Source: Bdellovibrionota bacterium
GTDB taxonomy: Bacteria; Bdellovibrionota; UBA1018; UBA923
Reading direction: 5' to 3'
DNA: 64,000 nt
NCBI GenBank assembly: GCA_040754655.1
Contig: JBFMCE010000003.1
Location: 3,231 to 67,230, forward strand
In this document: positions 1-55,892 of the stretch, one piece after another
How positions within the stretch are numbered: the first letter of the stretch is position 1
How the letters are laid out: the number at the start of each line of letters is the position of its first letter
The notes under the pieces: generated by a model
Told to the model about the DNA's origin: nothing
What the model saw: only the letters and a program-made list of their open reading frames with translations
Database searches by the model: none
Translations under genes and position numbers: made by a program

Positions 1-1196
1 GAACCTGGTTTTTTAAAGAGCACGGCTGCGATCAAACCCTTGCCCAAGATATACGAGATGCGATCCGGAAAGCTTGCTTGTATGTCCGCCAGTCCTTTGA
101 ATAAGAGCTCACCCTTGCGCTCAGTTTCAGAGATGAGTTCCAGCCTTTCAATTTCTTCCAAGGTAGCGAGACCAGCCGCCGACACCAGGGGATTGGCCGA
201 ATGGGTGCTGCTCATATTGCCTACTTCAGGCAAGTCCATGATGTGCTTTCGACCAAGTACTCCAGAAATAGGAAAACCAGATCCCATGCCTTTTCCAACA
301 GCGATGAGATCGGGTTCGACCTCGTAGTGTTCAAAACCAAATCGTTTTCCAGTTCTGGCAAAACCTGCCTGCATTTCATCGAAGGCAAGCAAGGCGCCGT
401 TGCTTCTGCAGATTCTCTCGATGCTTTTTACGAAGGCCTTGGGATAGAATACCGCGCCCCATCCCTGAAAAGTCTCAAGCATGAAACCACAAATGTCTTT
501 GGAAAGGTCAACGCCAGAGTCAGTGATCTTTTTCAGTCCTGTGGCGAGGAACCTCTCAGCAGCCGCCTCGTTTTCAATCAACCAAGGATAAGGAAATGGA
601 ATGTGATGGATGTTGGGATCAAGGTACCCCACCCACTCTTTTTGTTTAATATTGCTGCTCATCATTTGGGCGCCCATCGTGCGGCCATGCCAATTTGATT
701 CGATGCAGATGACGCCCAGTTTGCGTTTTCCTTGGGTCTGCCCGTGCATTCTCATCAGCTTGAGCGCGGCTTCAGTCGCTTCTGTGCCTGCGGAAAGCAA
801 AAAGGCCTTCTCAAAAGGAGGTCCTGCGAACTCGACGAGCTTCTTTAAGTAATGCAACCGAGGCTCGTTGGCGTAAGCGTATGAGTGCACCAGTTGTTGG
901 TCGAGCATCTTGCGAAGAGAGCTTGCAAGGTGTTCGTTTGCATGTCCAATATTCGTCACAAAGATAGTCGAAGTGAAGTCGATCCATTTATTCCCTGCTT
1001 TGTCATAAATACTATGACCCTTGGCCTTGTCCCAGACCAGAGGCAACTGGCCATGCATCGATCTAGATTCAACCTGATCGAGCTGGTTTAAGATCTGCTC
1101 AGTGCCCGGCGTAGGAATCTCGGTCTTTATCGTGCGGTGTTTCGTTTCGATGAGTGGGACTTTTTTTGGAGCGCGTGAAAATTGATATCCTGCCAT
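1..1196 (-). CDS. Class III PLP-dependent aminotransferase (GSA-aminomutase-like); the 3' end runs off the window
   Basis: Reverse-strand translation from ATG at 1196-1194 gives MAGYQFSRAPKK...AGTEATEAALKLMR...LAFDEMQAGFARTGKRFGFE...AVGKGMGSGFPISG. The FDE.Q.GF.RTG and GKG..G.P motifs are typical of class III aminotransferases. It is missing from the ORF track only because it runs off the window edge. Confidence 0.75.
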   Translation of the reverse strand, partial: MAGYQFSRAPKKVPLIETKHRTIKTEIPTPGTEQILNQLDQVESRSMHGQLPLVWDKAKGHSIYDKAGNKWIDFTSTIFVTNIGHANEHLASSLRKMLDQQLVHSYAYANEPRLHYLKKLVEFAGPPFEKAFLLSAGTEATEAALKLMRMHGQTQGKRKLGVICIESNWHGRTMGAQMMSSNIKQKEWVGYLDPNIHHIPFPYPWLIENEAAAERFLATGLKKITDSGVDLSKDICGFMLETFQGWGAVFYPKAFVKSIERICRSNGALLAFDEMQAGFARTGKRFGFEHYEVEPDLIAVGKGMGSGFPISGVLGRKHIMDLPEVGNMSSTHSANPLVSAAGLATLEEIERLELISETERKGELLFKGLADIQASFPDRISYILGKGLIAAVLFKKPG

Positions 1197-1201: not shown

Positions 1202-1921
1202 TCACCCGAATAGTTTTTGGAAAATAGTTTTGTCTTTATGGATCTGGAACTCAAGAAGTTCGAATTCTTCAAGCGTATCCACTTCGACGACCTTTGACGT
1301 TACGAAGCCGTAAACTTTGTTCCCATGAATGCGCTCGTGCTCTAATACGAATGAGGCGCGCAAGACATCTACGTATCCATTGCCATAAAAGGTCGGTGGA
1401 AACGCTTGTCTGGCAGAGTTTGAAGCATCCAGTTCGAAGGATCCTGATCCCACGGCCTTTAACCACTCTTCGTGGATCTCGAAAGACTTGTAAGCAGACT
1501 CTGGCATCTGGTGCACCGAGCGCAACGCGGTTGAGGGCGGTGAAGTTCTGAATTTTTCTATGGCTTGGTCAATGAGTTCAGGCTCTCTGAGCGGAGTTGT
1601 CGGCCTCAAGTGCACTAAGAATTCCGGTAGTTTGCCTTCATTGTCTTTAAACCAATCAAGCGCATGAGCGACAAATTCATAATCGGTTGACCGATCGCCT
1701 GAAATTGCAGCGGGTCTGAGGAAAGGAACTTCGGCGCCGTAGTGTCGCGCGATCTCGGCGATCTCGCTAGAGTCCGTTGAAACGATCGTTCTCGAGGTGT
1801 GTTTTGATAAAATCGATGCTCGTATTGAATATGCGATCAGCGGGTGCCCATGAAGTTGCTTGAGGTTTTTTCCGGGAATGCCTTTTGAGCCGCCTCTGGC
1901 GGGAATAATAGAATAAACCAT
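1202..1921 (-). CDS. Acylneuraminate cytidylyltransferase family (CMP-nonulosonate synthetase, NeuA-like)
   Basis: N-terminal IIPARGGSKGIPGKNL is the classic NeuA/CTP_transf_3 motif. Length 239 aa. Stop codon lies 3 nt from the downstream aminotransferase start. Confidence 0.85.
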   Translation of the reverse strand: MVYSIIPARGGSKGIPGKNLKQLHGHPLIAYSIRASILSKHTSRTIVSTDSSEIAEIARHYGAEVPFLRPAAISGDRSTDYEFVAHALDWFKDNEGKLPEFLVHLRPTTPLREPELIDQAIEKFRTSPPSTALRSVHQMPESAYKSFEIHEEWLKAVGSGSFELDASNSARQAFPPTFYGNGYVDVLRASFVLEHERIHGNKVYGFVTSKVVEVDTLEEFELLEFQIHKDKTIFQKLFG

Positions 1922-4994: not shown

Positions 4995-5183
4995 TTTTCT
5001 CCGACGTGATGGATTTAAACAGAAGTACTTTATCATGGGTTTTATTACTTCAAGGATCCCGTTTTAAAAAGCCTTATTTGGGCTCTTTTTTTGGGAGTGT
5101 CGCTCGTTCGTGTGTTCGCGTGGCGGAGAAGTAGGTGATTCGTGGCCTGAAGATTGCTTAGGTTGCGGCAAGAGGTAAAGAAA

Positions 5184-6212: not shown

Positions 6213-6285
6213 GTACTGAGTAAGTCATTGGAAGAAAAAACTTGTCGGAAAGAAGTAAGCTTTTCCTTTTGTCCCTTCTGGAATG

Positions 6286-7883: not shown

Positions 7884-7889
7884 GTTTGT

Positions 7890-8747: not shown

Positions 8748-8762
8748 GATTCAGGTCCTTTC

Positions 8763-8777
8763 CTAAGAATTTCTTAG
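8763..8777. promoter_or_regulatory. Perfect 7-1-7 palindrome CTAAGAATTTCTTAG in a divergent intergenic region (candidate operator)
   Basis: Read directly from the sequence. Lies between the start of the NeuB-like gene (8747, minus) and the tandem-GT gene (8846, plus). Confidence 0.35.
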
Positions 8778-8845
8778 ACGCTCTAGACAGAGAATCATGC
8801 TACATTTGTGGGCGGATTGCTAATGGAAAGTGTGGCCTAAAGTCA

Positions 8846-39647: not shown

Positions 39648-42025
<2,378 letters not shown>

Positions 42026-42029
<4 letters not shown>

Positions 42030-42928
42030 AACTTGGCTTGGGTACCGTGCAGTTCGGCTTAAACTACGGTGTCTCAAACCGATCTGGGATCGTAGCGCCG
42101 TCCGAAGTGAAGAATGTACTGGCATGCGCTGCGAAGTCCGGCGCCGTTGGCTACCTTGATACGGCGACCGCTTACGGGAGCGCAGAAGAGGTTCTGGGTG
42201 CGACCCTTGAACAGAGGCACCCATTCAAGATCGTGACGAAAACCCCGACTTTTAAAGATTCCTTGATTTCTAGCGAGAGTGCCGACGAGTTGGAACGAAG
42301 TTTCAGGAAGTCATTGTTAAGACTGAACCAGACTGCAGTCTATGGCCTGCTTGCGCATCACGCCTCACCTCTTCTTGATCGCGATGGCGCGTTCTTGTTC
42401 GATCGAATGTTGAAGCTCAAAGAACAAGGCGTGGTGAAAAAGATCGGCGTCTCGGTTTACAGCGCCGAAGAAATAGATCGGGTCATTGAACGCTATCCTG
42501 TTGAGCTGATCCAAGCGCCTGTGAGTCTTTTAGATCAGCGTCTTGTGACCGGTGGGCACTTGGCGCGCTTGAACGAAAGAGGCATCGAAGTGCATGCCCG
42601 CTCTGTTTTCTTGCAAGGGCTTCTTTTGATGGAGGCCGATAATATTCCTCGGAACTTGGCTTCGATTCAAGAGCATTTGGGCAACTTGCGTGCTGAGGTC
42701 GAAGCACGGGGGCTGACGATGTTGCAGGCGGCGCTGGGTTTTGTATTGAATCTAGAAGCCGTGACGGCATGCTTGGTGGGTGTTTGCTCTTTAAGCGAGT
42801 TGAATCAAATCTTGGAAGCAGCCCGGTTGGCGCAAGAAAAGAAATTTGAGATCTCAGGCGTCGCAGCAAGTGCCGCTTGGGACGATGAGAGGGTGTTGAA
42901 CCCATTTTTTTGGGAGAAGTATGCTTAA
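42026..42928 (+). CDS. Aldo/keto reductase
   Basis: MKLGLGTVQFGLNYGVSN...DTATAYG is the AKR N-terminal signature. Confidence 0.8.
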
Positions 42929-44084
42929 AAGATGCGTGAAATGCGGTTTGCCAGAGACCTACGAGACGATCGAATTCGACGCTTCAGGGGTCTGCAATAT
43001 TTGCCGCCAAAAAAACTTCAAAGATGCTTCGATCGACTGGAAGGCGAGGAAGGTGATGTTCGATCAACTCGTTGAAGAGTATCGAGGCAAATATGAATAT
43101 GATTGCATCGTGCCCTTCTCGGGCGGGAAAGATTCGACGTTCACTTTGAATTATCTGATGCGCAAGTACAAACTCAAGCCTCTTGTCGTTCAGTTCAATC
43201 ATGGGTTCATGCGAGAGAATCTGCTGAAGAACAACGAACGGACCTTCAAAAAACTGGGAGTCGATGTGTTGAGCTTCACTCCTAATTGGAAAGTCGTCAA
43301 AAGGTTGATGCTCGAGGCTTTGATCCGAAAGGGTGATTTTTGTTGGCATTGCCATACGGGCATTTTTTCGTATCCCATGCACGTTGCGATCAAATACAAT
43401 ACGCCGCTCGTCATTTGGGGTGAACCCTCTTCTGAGTACACGGCGTATTACGATTACCGAGACAATGAAATCGAAGAAGTTGATGAGACCAGATTCAATC
43501 GTTTCGTGAACCTGGGTATCACTGCTGAAGACATGGCCGGGATGATCAAAGATGATTTCAATCTTGATCCACGAGACCTTGCTCCTTATGCGTATCCGAA
43601 GACCAGAGACTTGAAGCGCCTTAAGTATCGGTCGGTCTGCCTGGGCTCTTTCATTCCCTGGGATGTGAAGCGCAATGTTGAAGAGATCTCTCGCGATTTG
43701 GGTTGGAAGGGCGATGAAGTAGAGGGCATGCCGCCAGGCAAGTATCCTTACGAAAAGATCGAGTGCTACATGCAGGGCGTGCGAGATTACATCAAGTACC
43801 TCAAGCGTGGCTACTCACGCGTGACGCAAATGACTGCATTGGATCTTCGAAATGACCGTATTTCAAAAGAAGAAGCGGATCGACTGGTCGAGGAATATGA
43901 GGGCAAAAAGCCGCCATCGTTGCAGCTGTTCTTAGAGTACTTGGGGCTTAGCGAACAAGAGTTCAACGAGATCGTAGCGAAAACTGTGGTTCCTCCTTTC
44001 AAACCTGATTTTGAAACCATTCCGAGCGCGCCAAATACCTGGGATTTCGAACGCTGGTATCGCGAGGGTAAGGAAAAACCATGA
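42921..44084 (+). CDS. N-acetyl sugar amidotransferase, PP-loop ATPase (PseA/WbuX/WbpG-like), copy 1
   Basis: N-terminal Cys4 (CVKCGLPE...CNIC), PP-loop PFSGGKDST, and followed by hisH/hisF homologues. Confidence 0.8.
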   Translation: MLKRCVKCGLPETYETIEFDASGVCNICRQKNFKDASIDWKARKVMFDQLVEEYRGKYEYDCIVPFSGGKDSTFTLNYLMRKYKLKPLVVQFNHGFMRENLLKNNERTFKKLGVDVLSFTPNWKVVKRLMLEALIRKGDFCWHCHTGIFSYPMHVAIKYNTPLVIWGEPSSEYTAYYDYRDNEIEEVDETRFNRFVNLGITAEDMAGMIKDDFNLDPRDLAPYAYPKTRDLKRLKYRSVCLGSFIPWDVKRNVEEISRDLGWKGDEVEGMPPGKYPYEKIECYMQGVRDYIKYLKRGYSRVTQMTALDLRNDRISKEEADRLVEEYEGKKPPSLQLFLEYLGLSEQEFNEIVAKTVVPPFKPDFETIPSAPNTWDFERWYREGKEKP

Positions 44085-44698
44085 TCGGCATCCTTGACAT
44101 GAATATGGGAAATCTCAGGTCCGTGACCAATGCGGTTTACAGCTTGGGTTATGATCCCAAGGTTATTCATGACCAAGAGGGCTTGAAAGAAGCGTCACAC
44201 CTTATCATTCCGGGAGTAGGTGCTTATCCGGCAGCGATGCGCCAGCTTGAGGCGATGAACCTGAAGGACGCGATCAAAGATTTTGCCAGCACCAAGCGGC
44301 CGGTGCTTGGGATTTGCTTAGGCATGCATATCTTCTCGACTTCTGGTGAAGAGGGGGGCGGAGCCGAAGGGTTAGGCCTTGTTCCGGGAGAGGTGCTGCG
44401 CATCGATACTCAGCCCGGACTGGTAGTCCCTCATGTGGGATGGAACAACATCCGATTTCTCAAAGAGCATCCTGTGCTTGAGAAGGTCAAGGACGGCGTC
44501 GATTTTTACTTCGTGCATTCGTATCGCTATGTTTGCGAGGACCAGCAAGACGCATTTGGCGAAACCGAATATGGTGATGCTTGGCCGTCAGTGGTCGCCA
44601 AAGACAACGTCATCGGTTTTCAATTCCATCCAGAGAAAAGCCAGATCAACGGTTTGAAGCTGATCGAGAATTTCTGCGAGTGGGATGGCAAATGTTGA
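44081..44698 (+). CDS. Imidazole-glycerol-phosphate-synthase HisH-like glutamine amidotransferase (WbuY-like), copy 1
   Basis: LIIPGVGAY...GICLGMH (catalytic Cys)...FQFHPEKS (His/Glu). Confidence 0.85.
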   Translation: MIGILDMNMGNLRSVTNAVYSLGYDPKVIHDQEGLKEASHLIIPGVGAYPAAMRQLEAMNLKDAIKDFASTKRPVLGICLGMHIFSTSGEEGGGAEGLGLVPGEVLRIDTQPGLVVPHVGWNNIRFLKEHPVLEKVKDGVDFYFVHSYRYVCEDQQDAFGETEYGDAWPSVVAKDNVIGFQFHPEKSQINGLKLIENFCEWDGKC

Positions 44699-45456
44699 AA
44701 AAAAGGATCATTCCCGTGCAGTTGCTCTTGAATGGAAGACTAGTGAAGACCAAGGGATTTGACTCTTTCCGCGACGTCGGAGATCCGGTCGCCAGTTCCA
44801 AGGTCTATAGCTCGCAGTATGCAGATGAGTTGGTTTTTCTGAATATCAGCCGAGAGAATCGCACAATCGAGTCTTTGTTATCGCTCATTGAACGAGTCTC
44901 AGAGGTTTGTTTCATGCCGCTGACCTTCGGCGGGGGGATAAGATCGCTCAGAGACGCCGAGCAGTTGATAAAGAACGGGGCAGACAAGATTGTTTTGAAT
45001 TCGGTTTCTTATGAAGACAGCCAAGTGATTTCCCAGATTGCCGATAAATTTGGATCTCAGGCTGTGGTGGTTTCAATGGATGCCAGGTTCGATTTGAAGG
45101 CAAATCGATACCGGTTGTATTCTCAATGCGGCACAAAGCTCGAAGAACCCTCGATCGAAGATCATGTACGGAAGGTGATTGAACACGGCGCTGGCGAGAT
45201 CTTCATCAATTCCATCGACAGAGACGGGATGATGACGGGTTACGATCTGAATTTGATCCGGCAAGTGGTGGGTTGTTCTTCTGTGCCCGTGATCGCTTGC
45301 GGTGGGGCTGGCCATTACGAGCATATGAAAGAGGCTTTCCTTGAAACGAAGGTCAGCGCTTTGGCGTGCGGGAGCTTGTTCAATTTCGGAGACAACAATC
45401 CGATTCGCGCCAAAGCTTTTTTGAGCAACTACGAGTTGCAGTTCAAGAAGGTGTGA
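44692..45456 (+). CDS. HisF-like cyclase subunit homologue (WbuZ-like), copy 1
   Basis: RIIPVQLLLNGRLVKTKGF, FGGGIRS and ACGGAGH barrel phosphate-binding motifs. ATGTTGA overlap with hisH-like stop. Confidence 0.85.
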   Translation: MLKKRIIPVQLLLNGRLVKTKGFDSFRDVGDPVASSKVYSSQYADELVFLNISRENRTIESLLSLIERVSEVCFMPLTFGGGIRSLRDAEQLIKNGADKIVLNSVSYEDSQVISQIADKFGSQAVVVSMDARFDLKANRYRLYSQCGTKLEEPSIEDHVRKVIEHGAGEIFINSIDRDGMMTGYDLNLIRQVVGCSSVPVIACGGAGHYEHMKEAFLETKVSALACGSLFNFGDNNPIRAKAFLSNYELQFKKV

Positions 45457-45458: not shown

Positions 45459-46016
45459 ATGGCTTTGACGAAACCCCTTAAAGGAAAACGCATCTATCTG
45501 AGGGAAGTGAAGTTGACTGACGTGAATGATCGTTACGTCAGTTGGCTCAATGATAGCGAAGTCACCAGGTACCTTGAAGTCCGTTTTCACCCTCAGAACC
45601 TTGATACGATCGCAGGCTTCGTCGCTAAAATGCGGGAGAGCGAGAACGAATTTCTTTATGCGATCTGCTTGAGCTCGAACGACCAGCACATCGGCAATAT
45701 CAAGCTCGGTCCGGTGAATGCGCACCATCGTAGCGCTGATGTGAGCCTTTTCATCGGCGAAAAGAAATGCTGGGGGCAGGGCTATGCCGCCGAGGCGATT
45801 GGCTTGGTGACGCGATTCGCTTTTCGTGAGCTTGGGCTCAATAAGTTGAGGGCTGGTTGTTACGCGGGGAATGAGGGCAGCGCTCGCGCATTCGAGAGAG
45901 TCGGATACCGAAGAGAAGGTCTTTTGCGCGGACAAGTTCTCTGCGACGGCAAAGAAACCGACGTCATTACGCTAGGCCTAAGGGCCGTAGAGTATCGCGA
46001 GGAGGCGAATCGATGA
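45459..46016 (+). CDS. GNAT family N-acyltransferase (RimL-like)
   Basis: 185 aa with IGNIKL, GEKKCWGQGYAAEA (acyl-CoA pocket) and FRELGLNKL. Confidence 0.75.
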   Translation: MALTKPLKGKRIYLREVKLTDVNDRYVSWLNDSEVTRYLEVRFHPQNLDTIAGFVAKMRESENEFLYAICLSSNDQHIGNIKLGPVNAHHRSADVSLFIGEKKCWGQGYAAEAIGLVTRFAFRELGLNKLRAGCYAGNEGSARAFERVGYRREGLLRGQVLCDGKETDVITLGLRAVEYREEANR

Positions 46017-48055
46017 TCGCCGCGATCCTGCAGGCTCGTTTTTCATCTTCGCGACTGCCAGGAAAAGTTTTGAAACCTATTCTTGGCAAGCCGATGCTCG
46101 TACGCCAGATTGAAAGGGTGAAACGTTCGAAGAAGATTAATTCGATCGTGATCGCCACCAGCGTCGACCCGAGTGATGATGCCGTCGCCGAGGCAGCCCG
46201 TAGTGCCGGGGTTGGCTGCTTCCGGGGGAGCTTGGATGATGTTTTGGACCGGTTTTACAAAGCTGCGGGGAGCCTGCCTTCTCGTCCGGATCATCTTGTC
46301 CGGTTGACTGGCGATTGTCCGCTGATCGACCCGAGGCTGATCGATGATGTGGTCTCTTTTTGTGTTGAGGGAGACTTTGATTACGCCAGCAATGCGATCG
46401 AACCCACCTTTCCAGATGGGCTGGACGTCGAAGTATTCCGTTATGAGGTGTTGACTCAGGCATGGGAAGAGGCAAAGCTGCTTTCACAACGCGAGCATGT
46501 AACGCCCTTTATCCATACCCAACAAAATCGATTTAACGTTGGTCATTACAAAGGAAAAGTAGATTTGTCCTCGTTGCGCTGGACGGTCGATGTTCCGGCG
46601 GATTTTGAATTCGTGAATCGAATTTACGAAGAGCTTTATCCGTTAAGAGACGATTTTTCGATGGAAGACGTTCTGAAGTTGCTGGAACAGAAGCCTCGCC
46701 TGGCTGGGATCAATAAGGATTTAGAAAGAAATGAGGGTTTTAAAGTGTCTCAGCGAAAAGACTTTTTCATGAACCGTTATCAAAAATCCAATGTGCTATT
46801 GGAGCAAACTTTAAAAACAATCCCTCTTGGCAGTCAGACTTTCAGCAAGAGCAAGACCCAGTATCCGAAGGGAGTGTCTCCATACTTCATTGAACGCGCC
46901 CGGGGAAGCCGTGTCTGGGACGTCGATGGGAACGAGTATGTGGATTTTGTGAACGGTTTGTGTGCAGTGAACTTGGGTTATGGTGATCCCGATGTGACTA
47001 AGGCTGTCAAGGAGCAGCTTGAAGACGGCGTTATTTTTTCGCTCCCGCATCCCATTGAAGGCCAGGTTGCCGAGAAAATGGTAGAGATGATTCCGTGCGC
47101 AGAGATGGTTCGGTTCGGAAAGAATGGTTCGGATGCAACTTCTGGCGCCATTCGATTGGCAAGGGCTTATACACGGCGTGACCACGTCGCGGTCTGTGGT
47201 TATCATGGGTGGCAAGATTGGTATATTGGCTCGACTGCACGGAACCTTGGCGTTCCGCAAGCGACACGCGATCTCACCCATGCTTTTACTTATAATGACC
47301 TTGAATCCCTAAAGAAGGTCTTTAGCGACTATCCAGATCAAGTTGCTGCCGTGATCATGGAACCTGTAAATGCCCAAGAGCCCAAGGCAGGGTTTCTCAA
47401 TGAACTTCAGGAACTCACAAAACAAAATGGGGCTTTATTGATCTTTGACGAGACTATTACCGGGTTTCGTTTCGATAATGGCGGCGCCCAGGCGACTTAT
47501 AAAGTGACGCCGGATTTGGCTACTTTCGGCAAGGGTATGGCTAACGGGTACCCGGTCTCGGCGATCGTGGGTAAAGCAGACGTGATGCGCCTCATGGAGG
47601 AAATCTTTTTTTCTTTCACCTTTGGTGGAGAAACGCTTTCGCTAGCTGCAGCGCTGGCGACGATGACAAAGCTCCAGGCGCGCCCCGTGGTTCAGGCGAT
47701 GTATGAACAAGGCAAAAAAGTCATTGCAGGGGTGGAGAGGCTGATCGAGCAGTTTGAGATGAGCGATATGCTTTCGATCACTGGGAATCCTACTTGGTCT
47801 TTTCTAAATTTTAAGGAGATAGCCCCGTACACTCAATGGCAGATCAAGACATTGTTTTTGCAAGAGGTCTTTGCCCGGGGGATCTTGCTTCTTGGTACTC
47901 ACAATATGAGTTATTCACACAATGACGGCGATATTGAAAAGCTTCTGGCGACTTATAAAGAAGTTTTTCCCGTCTTAAGATCAGCTGTGAGAGAGAAGGG
48001 TCTTGAAAGATTGTTGTTCACTCAGCCTCTAGAGCCTCTTTTTAAATTGCGATGA
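46013..48055 (+). CDS. Bifunctional protein: N-terminal PseF/SpsF-like cytidylyltransferase (CTP_transf_3) fused to C-terminal class III aminotransferase (GSA-aminomutase-like)
   Basis: Residues 1-250: MIAAILQARFSSSRLPGKVL...DCPLIDP. Residues ~270-680: FVNGLCAVNLGYGDP...LIFDETITGFRF...TFGKGMANGYPVSA class III AT motifs. No stop or frameshift between the domains. Confidence 0.75.
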   Translation: MIAAILQARFSSSRLPGKVLKPILGKPMLVRQIERVKRSKKINSIVIATSVDPSDDAVAEAARSAGVGCFRGSLDDVLDRFYKAAGSLPSRPDHLVRLTGDCPLIDPRLIDDVVSFCVEGDFDYASNAIEPTFPDGLDVEVFRYEVLTQAWEEAKLLSQREHVTPFIHTQQNRFNVGHYKGKVDLSSLRWTVDVPADFEFVNRIYEELYPLRDDFSMEDVLKLLEQKPRLAGINKDLERNEGFKVSQRKDFFMNRYQKSNVLLEQTLKTIPLGSQTFSKSKTQYPKGVSPYFIERARGSRVWDVDGNEYVDFVNGLCAVNLGYGDPDVTKAVKEQLEDGVIFSLPHPIEGQVAEKMVEMIPCAEMVRFGKNGSDATSGAIRLARAYTRRDHVAVCGYHGWQDWYIGSTARNLGVPQATRDLTHAFTYNDLESLKKVFSDYPDQVAAVIMEPVNAQEPKAGFLNELQELTKQNGALLIFDETITGFRFDNGGAQATYKVTPDLATFGKGMANGYPVSAIVGKADVMRLMEEIFFSFTFGGETLSLAAALATMTKLQARPVVQAMYEQGKKVIAGVERLIEQFEMSDMLSITGNPTWSFLNFKEIAPYTQWQIKTLFLQEVFARGILLLGTHNMSYSHNDGDIEKLLATYKEVFPVLRSAVREKGLERLLFTQPLEPLFKLR

Positions 48056-49122
48056 GAGTAGCGATAAGAACCGACGCATCTATTCAAAGCGGTACTGGGC
48101 ACTTTTTCAGGTGCTTGACGCTCGCGCAAGACCTGAAGCTGAAAGGCGTTGATTCGGTCTTTGTCTGTCGCAAGCTTTCCCAGGATCTTTCGAGGCTTCT
48201 CTTAGAAAAAGGCTTTCCGGTCTTGGCTCTGAAGCGCTCTTTTGAGGAAGAAGACTGGGATTTAGATTTACCCGAGATGCAGCTTGAGTTCGGTCGATCT
48301 GGCAAAAGGCTGGATTGGTTGATCGTCGACCAATACTCACTCGACCGAAGATGGGAATCCCAGGCGCGCGAATTCGCAAAACGCATCATGGTGATCGATG
48401 ACCTCGCGAATCGCAAGCATGATTGCGATCTTCTTCTAGATCAGAACTACTACCAAGACAGCGCGACTCGATATTTAAATCTCGTGCCCGCACACTGTGT
48501 TCAGTTGCTTGGCCCGGAGTACGCTCTTTTGAGAAGCGAATTTCGAATTTCTCGCTCCAAACTGCGCCGCCGTTCGGGAGAGGTGCGAAGGGTTCTTGTT
48601 TTTTTTGGCGGTTCCGATCCAACAGGTGAGTCCCTGAAGGCAGTGGAAGGGATCGAAAGGTTTTCGTCTAACACCGATATGCGATTTGATTTAGTCGTTG
48701 GTGCGCTCAACCCTTCTCGAGAAGATCTCGTCGCCCGTGCGCGGAAACTACCCTACCTGACTGTTCACACCGAGACCCGGCAAATGGGTAAGTTGATGGA
48801 GAGCGCAGACTTGAGTCTGGGGGCAGGCGGAACCACGACCTGGGAGAGGTGTCGCCTGGGTTTGCCTGCACTGGTAACCATCGTGGCCGGAAACCAACGG
48901 CAGGTCGCGGAAGAACTATCGAGTTTTGGCGCGATACAGAATTTGGGCTGGCACGAGGATGTCTCGACTGATTTTCTTTATGAGTCGATGGTCAGCGTAT
49001 GCGGTGATCGCGATCGTGTTCGAAATATGAGTCAGAAGGCGCTCGAGGTCATGGGTACGAGCTTGGATTCAAATGAGCTCAAGGCTGTCGGCGCGATATT
49101 GGAGGCTGATTTTGCTGGATAG
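48052..49122 (+). CDS. pseG: UDP-2,4-diacetamido-2,4,6-trideoxy-beta-L-altropyranose hydrolase, PseG
   Basis: MRVAIRTDASIQSGTGHFFRCLTLA matches the PseG N-terminal signature. GT-B-like, 356 aa. Confidence 0.85.
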   Translation: MRVAIRTDASIQSGTGHFFRCLTLAQDLKLKGVDSVFVCRKLSQDLSRLLLEKGFPVLALKRSFEEEDWDLDLPEMQLEFGRSGKRLDWLIVDQYSLDRRWESQAREFAKRIMVIDDLANRKHDCDLLLDQNYYQDSATRYLNLVPAHCVQLLGPEYALLRSEFRISRSKLRRRSGEVRRVLVFFGGSDPTGESLKAVEGIERFSSNTDMRFDLVVGALNPSREDLVARARKLPYLTVHTETRQMGKLMESADLSLGAGGTTTWERCRLGLPALVTIVAGNQRQVAEELSSFGAIQNLGWHEDVSTDFLYESMVSVCGDRDRVRNMSQKALEVMGTSLDSNELKAVGAILEADFAG

Positions 49123-49684
49123 GAAAGATTGCATTCTTCGCGATGTCATGGTTTTCGACCTTGATCAAATTCTCGAGTGGCGAAACTCAAGCCGCATCCG
49201 CCTGAATATGTTTACTGATCACGAGATCACTCGTAGCGAGCATCTTGGGTGGTTTGAGCGCCAAAAACATGACCCGAAAACGAGGGTAAAGTTATTCGTT
49301 TACAAAAGTGGCCCTGCCGGGATCGTAACGTTTTCAGAAATCGATCCTGATTCAGCGAGCGCGAATTGGGGATTCTACTTAGGCGAGACGGAGCTTCCGA
49401 AGGGGTGCGGCCTGGCAATGGGTTTCTTGGCTTTGAACTTTGCGTTTGAAGAGATCGATTTGTCACGGGTTCACGGCGAATCCTTTTCATTCAATGAGGC
49501 CAGCGTGGGTTATCACCGCAGGCTTGGGTTCGTAGGCGCTGAGCCACGGTTTAAGCCTTTGCTGAAAAATGGTAAGTACGAAGAAATAGCTTCATTTGTT
49601 TTATTGAAAGACGCTTGGTTGCGTCGGAAACCTGAAATTGAACAGCGTATTTTTGGAGAGGTTTTATGCGAACCATCAGCATAG
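49112..49684 (+). CDS. pseH: GNAT N-acetyltransferase, PseH-like
   Basis: FDLDQILEWRNSSRIRLNMFTDHEI...HLGWFE follows the PseH W-R-N pattern. TTG start with GGAGG RBS; an ATG at 49148 is an alternative. Confidence 0.65.
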   Translation: MLDRKDCILRDVMVFDLDQILEWRNSSRIRLNMFTDHEITRSEHLGWFERQKHDPKTRVKLFVYKSGPAGIVTFSEIDPDSASANWGFYLGETELPKGCGLAMGFLALNFAFEEIDLSRVHGESFSFNEASVGYHRRLGFVGAEPRFKPLLKNGKYEEIASFVLLKDAWLRRKPEIEQRIFGEVLCEPSA

Positions 49685-50715
49685 GCGACAGGAAGATCGG
49701 GGAAGGGCAACGCCCCTTCATTATCGCCGAAATGTCGGGTAATCATAACCAGTCGCTGGAAAAGGCATTGGCCATTGTTGATGCGGCCGCCGACGCGGGC
49801 GTGCATGCGCTGAAGATCCAAACTTATACGGCCGATACCATGACGCTTGATCTCGCTGAGCGAGAGTTCGTTATCAAAGATCCGAAGAGTTTATGGAACG
49901 GATATTCGCTCTACAAATTGTACGAGGAGGCGCATACTCCTTGGGAGTGGCACAAACCCATTTTTGAACGGTGCCGTGCGCGAGGGGTAATAGGTTTTAG
50001 CACGCCTTTTGACCGAACTGCTGTTGAATTTCTCAAGACTTTGAACGTTCCTTTTTACAAGATCGCGTCTTTTGAAATTACGGATCTACCCTTGATCGCG
50101 ATGGTGGCTCGCACCGGGAAACCCATGCTGATGTCGGTGGGCATGGCTACGGCTGAAGAAATTGAAGAAGCTGTTGCAACGGCGCGTGCGGAGGGATGCG
50201 AAGAACTCGTGCTGCTCAAATGCACGAGCAGTTATCCGGCGAGTCCTGAGCACACGAACATCAGTACGATTGCTGATATGCGAAAAAGATTCCAATGCAA
50301 TGTGGGGCTTTCAGATCACACTATGGGAGTTGGGGTCGCCGTCGCCGCCATTGCTTTTGGGGCCACGGTCATTGAAAAACACTTTACGCTTTCTCGGACC
50401 GAGGGCGGAGTGGATTCCGCATTTTCTCTCGAGCCTCATGAGATGAAGAGCCTTGTGATCGAGTCTGAAAGAGCTTGGCAGGCGATTGGAAGCGTGAGCT
50501 ATGGCCCGACCGAAAAAGAGAGGCCATCTTTGCAGTATCGGCGATCGATATACATCGCTGAGGATCTGCGCGCAGGCGATGTTTTGAATGCGAAGAACCT
50601 TCGAATCATCCGTCCAGGCTTGGGGCTTGCGCCAAAGCACTATCAAGAACTCTTGGGTAAAGCTTTGAAGAGAGATGCTTCAAAAGGCACCCCAATGAGC
50701 TGGGATTTGGTATGA
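49666..50715 (+). CDS. pseI: Pseudaminic acid synthase PseI (NeuB family with SAF domain)
   Basis: PFIIAEMSGNHNQS NeuB motif and C-terminal SAF region RRSIYIAEDLRAGDVLNAKNLRIIRPGLG. Confidence 0.9.
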   Translation: MRTISIGDRKIGEGQRPFIIAEMSGNHNQSLEKALAIVDAAADAGVHALKIQTYTADTMTLDLAEREFVIKDPKSLWNGYSLYKLYEEAHTPWEWHKPIFERCRARGVIGFSTPFDRTAVEFLKTLNVPFYKIASFEITDLPLIAMVARTGKPMLMSVGMATAEEIEEAVATARAEGCEELVLLKCTSSYPASPEHTNISTIADMRKRFQCNVGLSDHTMGVGVAVAAIAFGATVIEKHFTLSRTEGGVDSAFSLEPHEMKSLVIESERAWQAIGSVSYGPTEKERPSLQYRRSIYIAEDLRAGDVLNAKNLRIIRPGLGLAPKHYQELLGKALKRDASKGTPMSWDLV

Positions 50716-51338
50716 CGGCAGTGAGTCGAATCGTTCTTTTGGATACCGGCATCGGCAACATCCAGTCGGTTGCAAACGTCTTGGAATACATTGGCGCTCA
50801 TTTCTGGGTCTCAGATAAGATCGAAGATTTGTCTAAAGCAGATAAGATCATTTTTCCCGGCGTAGGGACTTATGGCAACGCCATCAAGCGCATGAAAGAG
50901 AAGGGGCTCTTTGAGCCGCTGAAACACGCGATGAACGTCGATCAAAAACCTAGCCTTGGTATTTGCGTAGGCATGCAAGTTCTTTCGGAAATCGGATATG
51001 AGTTTGGTGAGCATCAAGGTTTAGGGATTATTCCTGGAAGCGTCAAGAGGCTGCAAACTGCCGATCGAAAACTGCGCTTGCCCCATGTCGGTTGGAACGA
51101 CGTGAGTCTTAACAAGGACTCCGCCCTTTTTAAGGATATTGAACAAGGCGCATCGTTCTATTTCCTGCACAGCTATTATTTTGAGCCCTCTGATCGTTCA
51201 AACATTTCTTGCACCGTAGATTACGGGCAAAGGTTCACCGCCGCGATCGAGAGGGGAAATGTTTTTGGCGTCCAGTTCCACCCTGAAAAAAGTCAAGGCC
51301 CTGGCATTCAACTGTTTAAGAACTTCGTGGAGATGTGA
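50712..51338 (+). CDS. HisH-like glutamine amidotransferase, copy 2
   Basis: IIFPGVGTY...GICVGMQ...VQFHPEKS. Confidence 0.85.
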   Translation: MTAVSRIVLLDTGIGNIQSVANVLEYIGAHFWVSDKIEDLSKADKIIFPGVGTYGNAIKRMKEKGLFEPLKHAMNVDQKPSLGICVGMQVLSEIGYEFGEHQGLGIIPGSVKRLQTADRKLRLPHVGWNDVSLNKDSALFKDIEQGASFYFLHSYYFEPSDRSNISCTVDYGQRFTAAIERGNVFGVQFHPEKSQGPGIQLFKNFVEM

Positions 51339-51344
51339 CGAGAG

Positions 51345-52157
51345 ATGCTAAAGCACAGGCTTATTCCGTGCCTATTCTTGAGAAATGGGGTTTTAGTTCA
51401 GAGCAGGGGCTTTAAGCGCTACCAAATGCTGGGAAATCCAGTGGTCGCCGTTGATCGCTACAACCAGTGGGGGGTCGATGAATTGATTTACATCGATATT
51501 ACGCCCGGAGCCTATAGCGGCCTGAACCGCGAGGACGTCGCTTCGCCGAGTCGCAACAACATTTTAGATATCATTCGTGACGTCTCGAAGAAGTGTTTCA
51601 TGCCCCTGACTTTTGGCGGTGGGGTGCGAACCTTGAAAGACATTGGCGATAGGCTCGCTTGTGGCGCAGATAAGGTGACGGTCAACACGGCGGCCTTAGA
51701 TGATCCCAAGTTCATTTCAGAGGGTGCAAAAGAATATGGCTCGCAGTGCATTATCCTCTCGATCGATGTCAAGAGGGCGGAAGATGGTTCTTGTCGAGTT
51801 GTGCGCAGTGGCAAAGCGATGACTGATCTTGATGTGATCGAATGGGCTAAAAAAGCTGAGGGACTGGGGGCGGGAGAAATCTTCCTCAATTCCGTTGATC
51901 GCGATGGATCAGGACAAGGTTATGACCTTGAGTTGGTTCGTACGGTCGCACGCTCAGTAAACGTGCCTGTCATTGCTTGTGGAGGAGTCGGAAACTGGGA
52001 CCACTTGGTAGAAGGCGTCAGGCAGGGAGAGGCTTCGGCAGTAGCGGCAGCCAATATTTTCAGCTATAAAGAACAAAGCATTATCGAAGCAAAACAGTAC
52101 TTGATCAAATCCGGCCTGAATTTCCGTCCTGACGGAGCGGGTGAAGGAGTCAAATAA
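51345..52157 (+). CDS. HisF-like cyclase subunit homologue, copy 2
   Basis: RLIPCLFLRNGVLVQSRGF, FGGGVRT, ACGGVGN. Confidence 0.85.
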   Translation: MLKHRLIPCLFLRNGVLVQSRGFKRYQMLGNPVVAVDRYNQWGVDELIYIDITPGAYSGLNREDVASPSRNNILDIIRDVSKKCFMPLTFGGGVRTLKDIGDRLACGADKVTVNTAALDDPKFISEGAKEYGSQCIILSIDVKRAEDGSCRVVRSGKAMTDLDVIEWAKKAEGLGAGEIFLNSVDRDGSGQGYDLELVRTVARSVNVPVIACGGVGNWDHLVEGVRQGEASAVAAANIFSYKEQSIIEAKQYLIKSGLNFRPDGAGEGVK

Positions 52158-52161
52158 AGCC

Positions 52162-53283
52162 ATGCAGTATTGTTCACGTTGTGTTTATCCAGAGATCGCG
52201 GTCAACCTTCTCTTAGATGATGAAGGGATCTGTTCCGCCTGCCGGTCTTATGAAGAGTTTGAAAAGCTTCCACTTGAGTTCTGGAACCAAAGAGAAGTTG
52301 CCTTTCGAGATCTTTTAGAGAGCTATCGCAATAAGAAACAAGACAACTATGATTGCATCATTCCGGTTTCGGGCGGGAAAGACAGCTATTGGCAGACCCA
52401 TCTCGTAAAAAATGTTTATAAGCTGACTCCGTTGTTGGTGACCTATCATGGCAACCGTTTTCTTCCCGAAGGCGAAGAGAACCTCAATAACATGCGGCAT
52501 GTCTTCGGAGTCGATCACGTCATTTTTCGCCCAAGCACCGAAATGTTGAAGAAACTCAACAGAGCTGGCTTTAAGAAGACCGGAGACATGAATTGGCACA
52601 ACCATTGCGGCATTTACACCTATCCGGTTCAAATGGCGGCTCAACTCAATATTCCTTTGATCGTTTGGGGTGAAACACCTTGGGATATTTCTGGCATGTT
52701 CGGGGCCAACGACTTCCCTGAGATGAGCGCGAGAGAGCGCCTTGAGCATGGGCAGCGCGGTTTTGATTGGCACGACTTCGTGGGCGTGGAGGGGCTTGAG
52801 GCTAAAGACTTGCTCTGGGCGCGTTACCCAAGCGACGAAGAGATCAAGCGCGTGGGGATTCGCGGCATTTACGTCGGCAACTTTATCAAGTGGGATGAGA
52901 ACAAGCATTCCAAGCTGGTTGAGGAGAAGTACGGTTTCCAGAAAGCCAGGCAGCCCTTCGAGCGTACGTACCGGCTTTTCTCGAACTTGGATGATATCCA
53001 TGAAAATGGCGCGCATGACTATCTGAAGTACATTAAATTTGGCTATGGCCGGGCTTCGGATCACGCTTCAAAAGATATCCGCAAAGGTTATATGACCCGT
53101 GAGCAAGGTATTGAAATGGTCCGAAAATATGACGCCGTCAAATCGAGTGATACCTACAATTGGCTTGAGTACGTGGGGATGAGTGAAAAGGAATTTGATG
53201 AAATAGCCGACACGTTTCGCGACAAACGGGTCTGGCGGAAAGATTCAGCGGGCAATTGGGTCAAAGACAATCTTTGGGATTGA
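52162..53283 (+). CDS. N-acetyl sugar amidotransferase, PP-loop ATPase, copy 2
   Basis: CSRCVYPE...CSACRS zinc ribbon and PP-loop IPVSGGKDSY, paralogous to the ORF at 42921. The ATG at 52162 has an AGGAG RBS. Confidence 0.8.
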   Translation: MQYCSRCVYPEIAVNLLLDDEGICSACRSYEEFEKLPLEFWNQREVAFRDLLESYRNKKQDNYDCIIPVSGGKDSYWQTHLVKNVYKLTPLLVTYHGNRFLPEGEENLNNMRHVFGVDHVIFRPSTEMLKKLNRAGFKKTGDMNWHNHCGIYTYPVQMAAQLNIPLIVWGETPWDISGMFGANDFPEMSARERLEHGQRGFDWHDFVGVEGLEAKDLLWARYPSDEEIKRVGIRGIYVGNFIKWDENKHSKLVEEKYGFQKARQPFERTYRLFSNLDDIHENGAHDYLKYIKFGYGRASDHASKDIRKGYMTREQGIEMVRKYDAVKSSDTYNWLEYVGMSEKEFDEIADTFRDKRVWRKDSAGNWVKDNLWD

Positions 53284-53289: not shown

Positions 53290-54288
53290 ATGATGAAATA
53301 TGAAGATATCAGCCCGTCTTCGCTCTTAGGCGATCAGAATGCGGCGATGATGCAAGATGTTGCAATGCTACAAGGGAGGCGACGAGAGTTCGTCGAAGTC
53401 GCTTGTCCAGCGTGCGCGGGTTCTCGGCGCACGTCTCTGTATGAGAAATATGGGATGCAGCACGTTGCCTGTGGTGATTGCGAGACCCAGTATATTTCGC
53501 CGCGACCCACCACCAAGGTATTAAGAGACTTTTACGCGCACTCAAAAAACTACGAATACTGGGCCAAACACATCTTTCCTGCAACAGCCGAAGTGAGGCG
53601 AGAGCGCATTTTTAAGCCCAGGGCAAAGCTCATCGCGGATCTCAGCCGGCAGCACGGCGCAAGACCCGGACTTCTCATGGAAGTCGGAGCAGGTTATGGC
53701 TTCTTTTGCGAAGAGATAGGCAAACTTCAGGTTTTTGACCGCGTTGTTGGCATCGAGCCCACCCCTCATTTGGCCGAGATCTGCCGTAAAAAAGGGATTG
53801 AGACGATTGAGTCGGTAATCGAAGACGTCAACCTTGAGGTGAAAGCCGATGTGGTCGTCAATTTCGAGGTCATCGAGCATCTCTTTGACCCCCATGCTTT
53901 CTTGGCTGCATGTCTCGAGCGACTCAATCCTAAAGGGCACTTGATCTTGACTTGCCCCAATATCGCGGGCTTCGAAACACAGATGCTCAAGAGGTCTTCT
54001 GACACGATTGACCATGAGCATTTGAATTATTTTTCTCCTGCTTCCCTGAAAAAACTGGCGGAACGAGTGGGCTTTCAAGTGATTCGTGTGCAGACACCGG
54101 GTGTGCTTGATGTGGATATCGTGTACCAACGGCTGAAAGACCAAGTGAAGGAAGGTATTGAAGTAGATCCTTTTATCCAAAGAATTCTCTTTTCCCAAGA
54201 TGAGAGCTTGCGCGATCAGTTCCAGAAGTTTTTGACTGAAGCAGGGCTTTCATCGAACATGATGCTGATCGCGCAAAAACCTCGATGA
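53290..54288 (+). CDS. Class I SAM-dependent methyltransferase with N-terminal Cys4 zinc-ribbon (paralogous architecture to 3354-4247)
   Basis: CPACAG...CGDC ribbon, LMEVGAGYGFF motif I, FEVIEHLFDP. Confidence 0.7.
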   Translation: MMKYEDISPSSLLGDQNAAMMQDVAMLQGRRREFVEVACPACAGSRRTSLYEKYGMQHVACGDCETQYISPRPTTKVLRDFYAHSKNYEYWAKHIFPATAEVRRERIFKPRAKLIADLSRQHGARPGLLMEVGAGYGFFCEEIGKLQVFDRVVGIEPTPHLAEICRKKGIETIESVIEDVNLEVKADVVVNFEVIEHLFDPHAFLAACLERLNPKGHLILTCPNIAGFETQMLKRSSDTIDHEHLNYFSPASLKKLAERVGFQVIRVQTPGVLDVDIVYQRLKDQVKEGIEVDPFIQRILFSQDESLRDQFQKFLTEAGLSSNMMLIAQKPR

Positions 54289-55892
54289 AGGCGTTCTCTT
54301 TACTGAAAAAAATCTGCAGGCGCGTGCTTCTTGATTCTGACGAACGTCATTTCGCACGCCACCAGGCTGAATACTCAAAGCGTTTGCTGAAGAATACGAA
54401 GCAGGACAAGAGGCGCATCCTCATCGACTTCTTCGACTCGAATTTAGTGGTTTACAGTTCAGGCCTTACTGCGCGTTATCTTGCGAGCAAGCTCAATGCC
54501 TCGATCGATGGTTTCCTCTTCGCTCGTGGCTGGGCCGGAAGACTCGGGATCCCGAGCCGAAGAATCGAGAAACTTTATGGGGCTTTTGGGGCGCGACCTA
54601 GGCTTTCTTTCAAAGAAGGGGAAAGGTTTTCGAAAGAGGCTCAAGAATACGCCGATCAGACGTTCTCAAGCCTGAAAAACAAATGGGATGTGGTCAACCT
54701 TTCAATCGATGGGGTGAAGATCGGTGATCTCGTGTATGACACCTACCTTCGAGCGGGCCGCTGGACCGTTGACCTCGCCGATCCGAGGCTAAAAGAAATC
54801 CTTTGCGACGCTTTTCTGATCTTCAAGCTTTGCAGAGAGTACTTCCGAAACCACGACGTCTGCGCAGTCATTACCTCTCACTGCGTGTATATTTCTCATG
54901 GCATCTTGGTCAGGGTCGCCAGCACTTTCCGAGTTCCTGTATTTTTCGTCATGGACCCTTATAAATTCCAAGTCGTCGAAGTTCGCGAAGATAACAATCA
55001 CTATCATTTTTATTACCACCGCTATAAAGAGCTCTTTGCGCGATTTAACGAAGTTGAAAAACAAAAGCATCGCGACGAAGCAAGAAAGGTTTTGCTAGAG
55101 CGGCTGTCAGGCAAGATCGACAGCGGGATCGCCGACATCCTGGAAGACGGTAGACCCGGATTGCACGGTTATGGCGCATTTTCAGAAGGCCGCTTGCTCA
55201 AAGAGACGGGGCGCCCTCGCGTGATCGTCATGCTCAATTGTTTTCTCGATGCCCCTCATTGTTATCGCGACATGCTCTTCCCTGATTTTTGGGAATGGAT
55301 CAACTTCGTGCTCAGTCGCGCTTCTCAGACATCGTTTGATTGGTACGTAAAGCCCCATCCCGGAGGTCTTCCTCAGAACGATCTTGTCTTGGAAGAACTC
55401 AAGAGAAAATACCCCAAAGTGAATTTCCTCGGTCGGTCTGCGTCGAATCGGCAAATTGCCGCAGAAGGAATCGACGCGATGTTCACGGTGTTCGGCACCG
55501 CGGCCCATGAGTTTGCTTACATGGGCATCCCGGTCGTGACCGCGGGAGACAACCCTCACGTCAACTATGGGTTTAACTTTCATCCTCGCACGGTTGAGGA
55601 GTACGAGAAATTCATCGCGAATGCCGGTCATTTGAAGATCGAGATCGACAAAGCCGAGATCGAAGAGTTTTTTTACATGCATTACATCGATGCGCATCGA
55701 CCGAATCCGTTCGGTGCGATCTGCGTTGATGATTCTTTGAGCTCGCAGGTTGTTGGCGCCCGGGTCAATCATCCAAGCATACTCAAGGATTACGTCAGGA
55801 CGGAAACCCAAGAGAAACTGCAAAAATTAGAAGCTTATTTGGGTGATTTTTTTGGGAACTATTTCCCTCAGATCAAAAACGAGCCTGGCTGA
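54285..55892 (+). CDS. Large hypothetical GT-B-like protein (Capsule_synth/TagF-like?), paralog group A; candidate nonulosonate transferase
   Basis: 535 aa. VIVMLNCFLDAPH...WYVKPHPGG...FTVFGTAAHEFAYMGIPVV shares the [KR].HP / S/T-rich / G.PV pattern with 14543 and 59629. It is the last gene of the pse operon. Confidence 0.3.
   Translation: MKAFSLLKKICRRVLLDSDERHFARHQAEYSKRLLKNTKQDKRRILIDFFDSNLVVYSSGLTARYLASKLNASIDGFLFARGWAGRLGIPSRRIEKLYGAFGARPRLSFKEGERFSKEAQEYADQTFSSLKNKWDVVNLSIDGVKIGDLVYDTYLRAGRWTVDLADPRLKEILCDAFLIFKLCREYFRNHDVCAVITSHCVYISHGILVRVASTFRVPVFFVMDPYKFQVVEVREDNNHYHFYYHRYKELFARFNEVEKQKHRDEARKVLLERLSGKIDSGIADILEDGRPGLHGYGAFSEGRLLKETGRPRVIVMLNCFLDAPHCYRDMLFPDFWEWINFVLSRASQTSFDWYVKPHPGGLPQNDLVLEELKRKYPKVNFLGRSASNRQIAAEGIDAMFTVFGTAAHEFAYMGIPVVTAGDNPHVNYGFNFHPRTVEEYEKFIANAGHLKIEIDKAEIEEFFYMHYIDAHRPNPFGAICVDDSLSSQVVGARVNHPSILKDYVRTETQEKLQKLEAYLGDFFGNYFPQIKNEPG

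Follow-up and report, generated by a model that had tools for sequence, protein, structure and literature searches.

In Acinetobacter baumannii prophages, EpaA, a fusion of a CTP_transf_3 cytidylyltransferase and an aldo-keto reductase (AKR), acts with the short-chain dehydrogenase/reductase (SDR) EpaB to convert the pseudaminic acid (Pse) Pse5Ac7Ac to its 8-epimer, as seen by NMR (PMC12053666). ElaA, an oxidoreductase of the Gfo/Idh/MocA family, has been modelled as oxidising the C8 hydroxyl of the legionaminic acid (Leg) derivative CMP-Leg5,7Ac2 before an SDR re-reduces it (PMC13656337). Caulobacter FlmC, which is cytidylyltransferase-like and has no homology to PseF, completes a six-gene Pse set sufficient for Pse-dependent flagellin glycosylation in E. 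coli (PMC7591256). The gene order pseC, AKR, pseF, class III aminotransferase, pseG has been recorded, with no function given, in Aeromonas group I flagellin glycosylation islands (PMC7874193) and is also evident from the gene tables for Legionella pneumophila serogroups 6 and 12 (PMC3694923); a bifunctional AKR and SpsF-like gene is found in a Vibrio Pse cluster (PMC7371886). Here, we analyse a 64,000-nucleotide stretch of a Bdellovibrionota genome (contig JBFMCE010000003.1 of assembly GCA_040754655.1, positions 3,231 to 67,230; hereafter the window), in which a FlmC/SpsF-type cytidylyltransferase is fused to a class III aminotransferase resembling glutamate-1-semialdehyde aminomutase (GSAM). 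The fusion belongs to a module that is real, widespread and uncharacterised. An earlier note on this DNA had suggested that the pairing may serve an uncharacterised modification, and our literature search is in line with this: it gave descriptive mentions and no paper that assigns a function or a characterised enzyme to the module, and the Aeromonas and Legionella papers list the genes unassigned. The fusion is not unusual; the genome search described below found it to be common, under generic database names.

The fusion, as the earlier note had read it, is one uninterrupted open reading frame (ORF) with both domains, and it is a genuine single gene. Its 680 codons contain no internal stop, and both halves score above their Pfam cut-offs: PF02348 (CTP_transf_3) matches amino acids 3–186 (E 1.6e-32, 113.5 bits, cut-off 22.6) and PF00202 (Aminotran_3) amino acids 288–583 (E 1e-52, 179.6 bits, cut-off 30.5). 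A Shine-Dalgarno sequence, GAGGAGG, lies upstream of the ATG at 46013, and the stop codon shares an ATGA overlap with the start of pseG. An alternative is that a sequencing or assembly error merged two neighbouring genes. In line with this, the NCBI record of the same metagenome-assembled genome has just a 428-aa aminotransferase (P0033, window 46769–48055), which starts at Met253 with the N-terminus MNRYQKS and leaves out the 252 in-frame upstream codons that make up the cytidylyltransferase part, and the two parts are separate genes in many related genomes. However, the junction DNA, where the note had allowed for a frameshifted stop, contains neither a stop nor a frameshift, and no Shine-Dalgarno sequence is seen there before Met253. 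The nearest relatives (61–69% identity, independent samples) are fused likewise, at 678–688 aa, so a lost stop codon is not the cause of the fusion; more than 100 cluster representatives (53–69% identity, also from independent samples) have an equal fused length and the conserved linker. Because length and linker are conserved in independent samples and the junction is clean, we take the fusion to be real and give a merging error almost no credence. An AlphaFold model has two well-folded domains, with pLDDT of the N-domain mostly 85–95; a Foldseek search of solved structures gave no chain that spans both domains and did not indicate the substrate. The C-terminal tail (amino acids 672–680; 48025–48052), ending in PLEPLFK(V/L)R, is conserved as well: L676, F677 and the terminal R680 are invariant in 20 homologues, though AlphaFold confidence is low there.

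The N-terminal domain is very probably the Pse-activating cytidylyltransferase of its operon, filling the role of PseF. Along its full length, 237 aa, it shares 46% identity with C. crescentus FlmC (E 5e-65; the FlmC sequence was translated from a synthetic operon in the supplement of PMC7591256), and matches a cytidylyltransferase of known structure (PDB 6oew, E 3.3e-36). The motif ARFSSSRLPGKVL occupies amino acids 8–20, and Q7, R9, S12, R14, P16 and K18 are invariant among 20 aligned homologues. Three NeuB-family synthases and three CTP_transf_3 genes occur in the window, one per pathway; the FlmC-type enzyme is the sole cytidylyltransferase of the Pse cluster, the other two genes lying in a Leg-like cluster and in a third cluster. 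Its distribution in the 74 loci surveyed below is complementary to that of the NeuA type, which was detected only in three (L057, L058 and L070) of the seven loci without a called FlmC-type gene; the remaining four are short contigs or ORF-calling failures. It is on the identity with FlmC and on this complementary distribution that we base the assignment. The canonical PseF model, TIGR03584, was rejected for this domain, which scores 31.1 bits over amino acids 4–66 only, against a cut-off of 205.7. The description "PseF-like" in the earlier note is thus apt for the function and wrong for the family.

The association of cytidylyltransferase (NT) and aminotransferase (AT) extends far beyond this window. 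A scan with one genome per species gave at least 80 loci (80 species genomes) in at least 14 phylum-level groups; the candidate stretches numbered 594, which may include ordinary HemL, as one search pattern fits HemL too. Loci were annotated with our own ORF caller and a panel of hidden Markov models (HMMs), and 74 of the 80 could be scored. NT and AT are fused in 41 of these, and in 25 others an NT gene is directly followed by an unfused AT gene, so that the two are fused or immediately adjacent in 66 of 74 and stand apart in the rest. In a neighbour-joining tree of AT domains, one clade is all fused and a second is mostly unfused. Since the fused protein of the window sits inside the second clade, separate from the first, fusion arose at least twice. 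These 66 loci and the repeated fusions, and not the pair of genes at the window start, sustain the note's view that the two activities work together. Fused and unfused forms are also intermixed, at 67–77% identity, in a search seeded with a Bacteroidota sequence. The usual order is PseB-PseC-[oxidoreductase]-(GNAT)-NT-AT-PseG(-GNAT)-PseI, with PseC within seven genes in 54 of the 74 loci by crude calling and in further ones by tblastn. Locus L086 packs the pathway into five annotated proteins and one unannotated 128-aa ORF: PseB, PseC, the 128-aa ORF, an AKR-NT-AT fusion, PseG-GNAT and PseI.

A third partner is present almost as regularly. By the HMM panel, an NAD(P) oxidoreductase lies within seven genes in 60 of the 74 loci (AKR in 31, Gfo/Idh/MocA in 25, both in 4), and tblastn adds more; the 14 loci with neither are mostly contig ends or mis-called ORFs that tblastn recovers. 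Gfo/Idh/MocA occupies the same position as the AKR, upstream of NT-AT, and the two families are largely mutually exclusive. Both have been joined to the pair, as AKR-NT-AT fusions of 980 aa (as in L086) and, in Acidobacteriota, as GFO-NT-AT fusions of about 1040 aa; a GNAT-NT-AT fusion (P0010) also exists. That unrelated oxidoreductase families are exchanged, and that fusions recur, argues that the aminotransferase works together with a redox step. Sequence comparison identifies the AKR and the extra GNAT of the window as orthologues of such fused domains: the AKR aligns end to end, at 39% identity, with the corresponding domain of the AKR-NT-AT fusion P0094, and the GNAT is 62% identical to the N-terminal domain of P0010, which the PseH of the window does not match. 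The AKR catalytic tetrad (D45/Y50/K72/H111) is kept in 97–100% of 38 orthologues. A PDB search with the Gfo/Idh/MocA partner returned only generic inositol or sugar dehydrogenases, not ElaA.

Some loci combine these families differently. In L012, a 554-aa NT-AKR fusion with the architecture of EpaA (8305–9969) stands directly before an NT-AT fusion (9821–12043), giving two FlmC-type cytidylyltransferase domains in tandem genes; against the phage collection, the NT-AKR fusion found weak, unrelated AKR matches only. In L059 (17989–19751) and L072 (17353–19118), the region downstream of the Pse cluster holds another FlmC-type NT gene with a Gfo/Idh/MocA gene immediately behind it. These two genes adjoin a PseC-like gene and a GNAT and may represent a further nonulosonate-tailoring pair.

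Since an oxidoreductase is nearly always present, amination of an oxidised position becomes the best explanation of the module. In the scheme we propose, the FlmC/SpsF-type domain would make CMP-activated Pse, a step that is well supported. The oxidoreductase (the AKR in this window, Gfo/Idh/MocA in other lineages) would then turn one of the nonulosonate's free hydroxyls into a ketone, which the pyridoxal phosphate (PLP) domain would transaminate to an amine. The only free hydroxyls of Pse are those at C4 and C8, and both arise only after PseI; precedent favours C8. Because a bona fide PseC is present, the aminotransferase must be an extra step in this window; it would act in place of the second reductase of the Ela and Epa systems. 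The extra GNAT may N-acetylate an amine, possibly the new one, and the two WbuX/HisH/HisF sets of the operon would turn N-acetyl into acetamidino groups. The scheme predicts a CMP-activated derivative of 8-amino-8-deoxy-Pse, in systematic terms a 5,7,8-triamino-3,5,7,8,9-pentadeoxynonulosonate. The substrate could be free Pse or CMP-Pse; fusion to the cytidylyltransferase suggests hand-over at the CMP-activation step. By analogy with the systems above, a bifunctional Pse enzyme that converts a hydroxyl through a carbonyl to an amine, probably at C8 and around CMP activation, is thus a plausible reading, which we hold tentatively. The earlier note had suggested amination at or after CMP activation; this keeps its place as the best explanation in light of the oxidoreductase partner, although the mechanism is inferred and loci without PseC also fit a rival.

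An 8-amino-3,5,7,8,9-pentadeoxynonulosonic acid is part of the O-antigen of Flexibacter/Tenacibaculum maritimum (PMC3210612), and the genes for it have not been identified (PMC9796276). It is possible, if doubtful, that the present module is the route to such 8-amino-8-deoxy (5,7,8-triamino) nonulosonic acids. To our knowledge, these have been reported only from the T. maritimum O-antigen. The 403-Da glycan of Aeromonas AH-1 was considered as a triamino composition and is not used as evidence here, as several compositions fit its nominal mass.

Several points count against amination at C8. The regiochemistry (C8 versus C4) and the substrate level (free versus CMP-sugar) rest on analogy. For AKRs, reduction is the usual direction, and our literature search found no biochemical or genetic study of the aminotransferase. 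The best 120 matches of the Bacteroidota-seeded search include no Tenacibaculum protein, while Aquimarina has the gene. Two GNATs occur in only 11 of 74 loci, so that acetylation of a third amine is not general, and the extra GNAT tracks the WbuX/HisH/HisF block rather than the aminotransferase. Finally, the module is found in reduced settings. The operon of L046 (8789–14625) encodes PseB, NT, AT, PseG-GNAT and PseI, but lacks both PseC and an oxidoreductase; with housekeeping genes (OTCase, Hsp33) as neighbours on either side, it departs from the usual context more clearly than any other bacterial locus. Relatives of the module are also carried by 14 IMG/VR contigs. Two unrelated phage backbones (L090, 3882–11642; L094, 1280–12210) share six genes, placed between those for the large terminase and the portal, namely PseB-like, AKR, FlmC-type NT, class III AT, GNAT and PseI-like, and neither PseC nor PseG was detected in these and other phage cassettes. 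The cassettes recall the serotype-converting epaA/epaB genes of prophages, and L094 additionally has a Maf-type (PF01973) gene.

In L046 and in the phage cassettes, the class III enzyme is the sole aminotransferase. This would be expected if it aminates C4 of the PseB product, UDP-4-keto-6-deoxy-L-AltNAc, either as a duplicate of PseC or with the other C4 stereochemistry, giving a Pse stereoisomer; the oxidoreductase would then have a separate role. We consider this unlikely. A genuine PseC directly follows PseB in the window (Table 1), and the aminotransferase would be redundant in the many loci that have PseC nearby. Moreover, the near-constant oxidoreductase and its fusion to NT-AT would be left unexplained, and phages and split clusters may use PseC and PseG encoded elsewhere.

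The PLP domain itself is compatible with amination of a sugar ketone and raises another alternative. K507, D479 and G372-S373-D374-A375-T376 align to the TLGK, FDEV and SGTEA motifs of GSAM. Across 20 homologues, these residues, the last five of which form the phosphate-binding motif, vary little or not at all; the PLP lysine, on which the earlier note had made its reading of this half depend, is invariant, and K507 and D479 are both intact. The nearest solved relatives are GSAM, then FumI, D-PhgAT, PctV and GenB, among which GenB (a C-6′ aminotransferase), FumI and PctV aminate carbonyls of non-amino-acid (sugar or polyketide-like) scaffolds. Identity as HemL was rejected on all three models tried (TIGR00713, 262.8 bits against a cut-off of 527.3; NF000818, 270 against 398; NF004856, 436.6 against 486), and also by context, a sugar operon and not one for haem synthesis. 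It is nevertheless conceivable that the domain is a GSAM-like aminomutase or a PLP epimerase that acts at the C7 or C5 amine carbon and, with the oxidoreductase, gives a new stereoisomer or an isomer with amino and hydroxy groups swapped, with no external amino donor. GSA aminomutases are its best sequence and fold matches, class III includes the GenB2 6′-epimerase and isoleucine 2-epimerase, and EpaA/EpaB and ElaA/ElaC show that stereo-inversion is a common form of nonulosonate tailoring. In addition, in a hand alignment of low confidence, the invariant H630/N631 seem to fall where ordinary class III transaminases have the arginine that binds the alpha-carboxylate. We think this improbable. 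N5 and N7 should already be acetylated, by PseH or PseG-GNAT in most loci, which would leave no free amine; scores stay below the HemL cut-offs; and other GSAM-like enzymes are ordinary transaminases.

The acetyltransferases bear on a further possibility, one that the earlier note had also listed: the two enzymes, oxidoreductase and aminotransferase, would make or modify an N-acyl group or the donor of that group, for example from hydroxyacyl through ketoacyl to aminoacyl, and leave the nine-carbon backbone alone. Extra GNATs lie in the module or are fused to it, and unusual N-acyl groups are common on Pse and Leg, for example the 3-hydroxybutyryl group in T. maritimum and the groups of the 376-Da and 403-Da Aeromonas glycans. 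Yet many loci are minimal, such as L086, which has no acyl-activating enzyme or carrier protein, and fusion to a cytidylyltransferase points to the sugar acid itself as the shared ligand. On balance, we regard tailoring of an N-acyl group as a poor prospect and retain amination of the nonulosonate backbone as the preferred explanation.

The fusion lies within one co-directional Pse operon with overlapping stops and starts (Table 1). PseB, PseC, PseG, PseH and PseI all score above curated equivalog cut-offs, and the six canonical Pse functions are complete if the N-terminal domain of the fusion is the cytidylyltransferase. The start of hisF was placed at an internal ATG that overlaps the hisH stop. 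Two complete WbuX/HisH/HisF(WbuZ) sets in one Pse operon (42921–45456 and 50712–53283), together with the methyltransferase, hint at a product with more than one acetamidino group. Downstream, a 535-aa ORF (54285–55892) has no Pfam match and occupies a place equivalent to that of PF27859 genes in L086 and L081. The PF27859 (LIC12162) protein, of about 590 aa, follows the Pse cluster in L086 (14694–16478) and a Chlorobium cluster of the third type in L081 (13248–15029); it may be the cognate glycosyltransferase. A Leg-like set, consisting of a PglD-like gene, a CBS-nucleotidyltransferase, a NeuA-like gene, NeuB and NeuC, is also present in the window.

Table 1. Positions in the window of the fusion, its domains, the surrounding Pse operon and the gene pair at the window start.
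Feature	Position	Strand	Remarks
ArgD/GABA-AT-type class III aminotransferase, cut by the window start	1..1196	-	PF00202 E 6.5e-79
NeuA/PseF-type cytidylyltransferase of a different ulosonic-acid cluster	1202..1921	-	TIGR03584 134 bits, below cut-off
pseB, UDP-GlcNAc 4,6-dehydratase (inverting)	39874..40869	+	TIGR03589 550.5 bits, cut-off 407.75
pseC, DegT-type C4 aminotransferase	40866..42029	+	TIGR03588 548.9 bits, cut-off 423.5
AKR, proposed redox partner of the aminotransferase	42026..42928	+	KidO-like; NF011432 179 bits, below cut-off
WbuX-type N-acetyl sugar amidotransferase, first set	42921..44084	+	TIGR03573 343.9 bits, cut-off 203.2
Putative HisH-like glutaminase subunit, first set	44081..44698	+	ORF; same WbuX/HisF block in related loci
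HisF/WbuZ-like cyclase subunit, first set	44692..45456	+	Homologues in the same block in L032, L072 and others
Extra GNAT (Acetyltransf_3), distinct from PseH	45459..46016	+	PF13302 E 1.5e-26
Fusion ORF, cytidylyltransferase and aminotransferase	46013..48055	+	680 aa, single reading frame
FlmC/SpsF-type cytidylyltransferase domain	46013..46720	+	aa 1 to ~236; PF02348 113.5 bits
Conserved linker of the fusion	46721..46777	+	aa ~237-255; kept in fused homologues; helix predicted at aa 241-255
GSA-aminomutase-like class III PLP aminotransferase domain	46778..48052	+	aa ~256-680; PF00202 179.6 bits
Codon (AAG) of the PLP-binding lysine K507	47531..47533	+	Aligned with the GSAM Schiff-base lysine in TLGK
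pseG, UDP-sugar hydrolase	48052..49122	+	TIGR03590 286.9 bits, cut-off 153.55
pseH, N-acetyltransferase	49073..49684	+	TIGR03585 102.7 bits, cut-off 93.1
pseI, pseudaminic acid synthase	49666..50715	+	TIGR03586 488 bits, cut-off 340.25
Second HisH/WbuZ/WbuX amidotransferase set	50712..53283	+	TIGR01855, TIGR03572, TIGR03573
Methyltransferase at the end of the Pse operon	53290-54288

The earlier note had seen the same pair of activities, unfused, at the window start. A NeuA-like CTP_transf_3 gene is indeed followed there, on the minus strand, by a gene for a class III aminotransferase, equal to the N-terminal portion of the 461-aa protein P0121, with a gap of 5 nt and not 3. The two pairs are not the same, however. 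The cytidylyltransferases are 30% identical over 128 aa and the aminotransferases 25% identical; the subfamilies are NeuA/PseF and ArgD/GABA-AT at the window start, FlmC/SpsF and GSA-aminomutase-like in the fusion. Among its best 120 matches, the ArgD-type family is highly conserved, single-domain and never fused. NeuA-type NT followed by ArgD-type AT recurs, with most of its neighbours, in Chlorobium and Cyanobium (L081, L083), in a cluster that contains a NeuB-SAF-AP_endonuc_2 fusion, SIS, a GHMP kinase, an NTP transferase, two SDRs, a methyltransferase and a glyoxalase. The association at the window start is thus analogous to that in the fusion but not the same, and it belongs to another conserved cluster, outside the Pse module. 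Even so, it suggests that class III aminotransferases act alongside ulosonate cytidylyltransferases.

In the window, this third ulosonic-acid cluster (1–8747, minus strand) has a NeuB-family synthase without a SAF domain at 7890–8747. It also includes a xylose-isomerase-like TIM barrel, two SDRs and a KdsC-like HAD phosphatase beside the NeuA-type and ArgD-type genes. An HNH endonuclease ORF (5154–6212, plus strand) lies between its methyltransferase and SDR genes.

Pseudaminic acids occur on the surface of many bacteria, pathogens among them, where they decorate flagella, capsules and O-antigens; they are targets for vaccines, phage receptors and antivirulence drugs. The three-part module sits in the middle of Pse operons of Aeromonas, Legionella, Bacillus relatives and many uncultured lineages. 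Should its action be to add a further amino group, many supposed makers of plain Pse would produce a chemically and antigenically different sugar, the name glutamate-1-semialdehyde aminomutase would be wrong for thousands of proteins, and the way in which the fish pathogen T. maritimum makes its 8-amino nonulosonate would become directly testable. Should the 8-amino route be true, triamino sugars would be made by more than 12 phyla and by phages with the terminase-portal cassette. The repeated fusions also offer a ready-made single polypeptide for the enzymatic synthesis of new CMP-sugars.

Finally, the module can be set against the systems it most resembles. Like the fusion, FlmC (CCNA_02946), of the SpsF type (COG1861), is encoded directly upstream of pseG (flmD) and activates Pse in place of a NeuA-type PseF (PMC7591256); it differs in being a stand-alone protein of 238 aa with no aminotransferase and no oxidoreductase partner. 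HemL is the best sequence and fold match of the PLP domain (about 29–32% identity, TM-score about 0.8, target-normalised) and shares its PLP lysine and aspartate, whereas the N-terminal substrate-binding motif of the PLP domain is PLGSQTFSKS, the GSAM counterpart of which we take to be PGGVSSPVRAF. In KdnB/KdnA, which convert Kdo to 8-amino-Kdo in Shewanella, and in WbpB/WbpE and NtdC/NtdA, a dehydrogenase makes a keto sugar that a PLP aminotransferase turns into an amino sugar, and in the case of 8-amino-Kdo this redox and amination chemistry takes place on the side chain of a ulosonic acid. KdnA (PDB 5k8b), WbpE and NtdA are of the DegT type, which matches the PseC of the window and not the fusion, whose aminotransferase is class III, GSAM-like and joined to a nucleotidyltransferase. 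EpaA (SBS22546.1) of A. baumannii prophages likewise joins CTP_transf_3 to an AKR and tailors Pse, and the NT-AKR fusion of L012, likened to it by domain architecture alone, shares this design, but the partner of EpaA is an SDR and the outcome is epimerisation rather than amination (PMC12053666). In the ElaA/ElaB/ElaC system of A. baumannii KL49, which epimerises CMP-Leg5,7Ac2 at C8, a Gfo/Idh/MocA gene lies beside the cytidylyltransferase gene (PMC13656337), and in 25–29 of our loci a member of the same family, a likeness at family level, precedes NT-AT or is fused to it. There, an SDR re-reduces the ketone; in the fusion module, the aminotransferase stands in its place.

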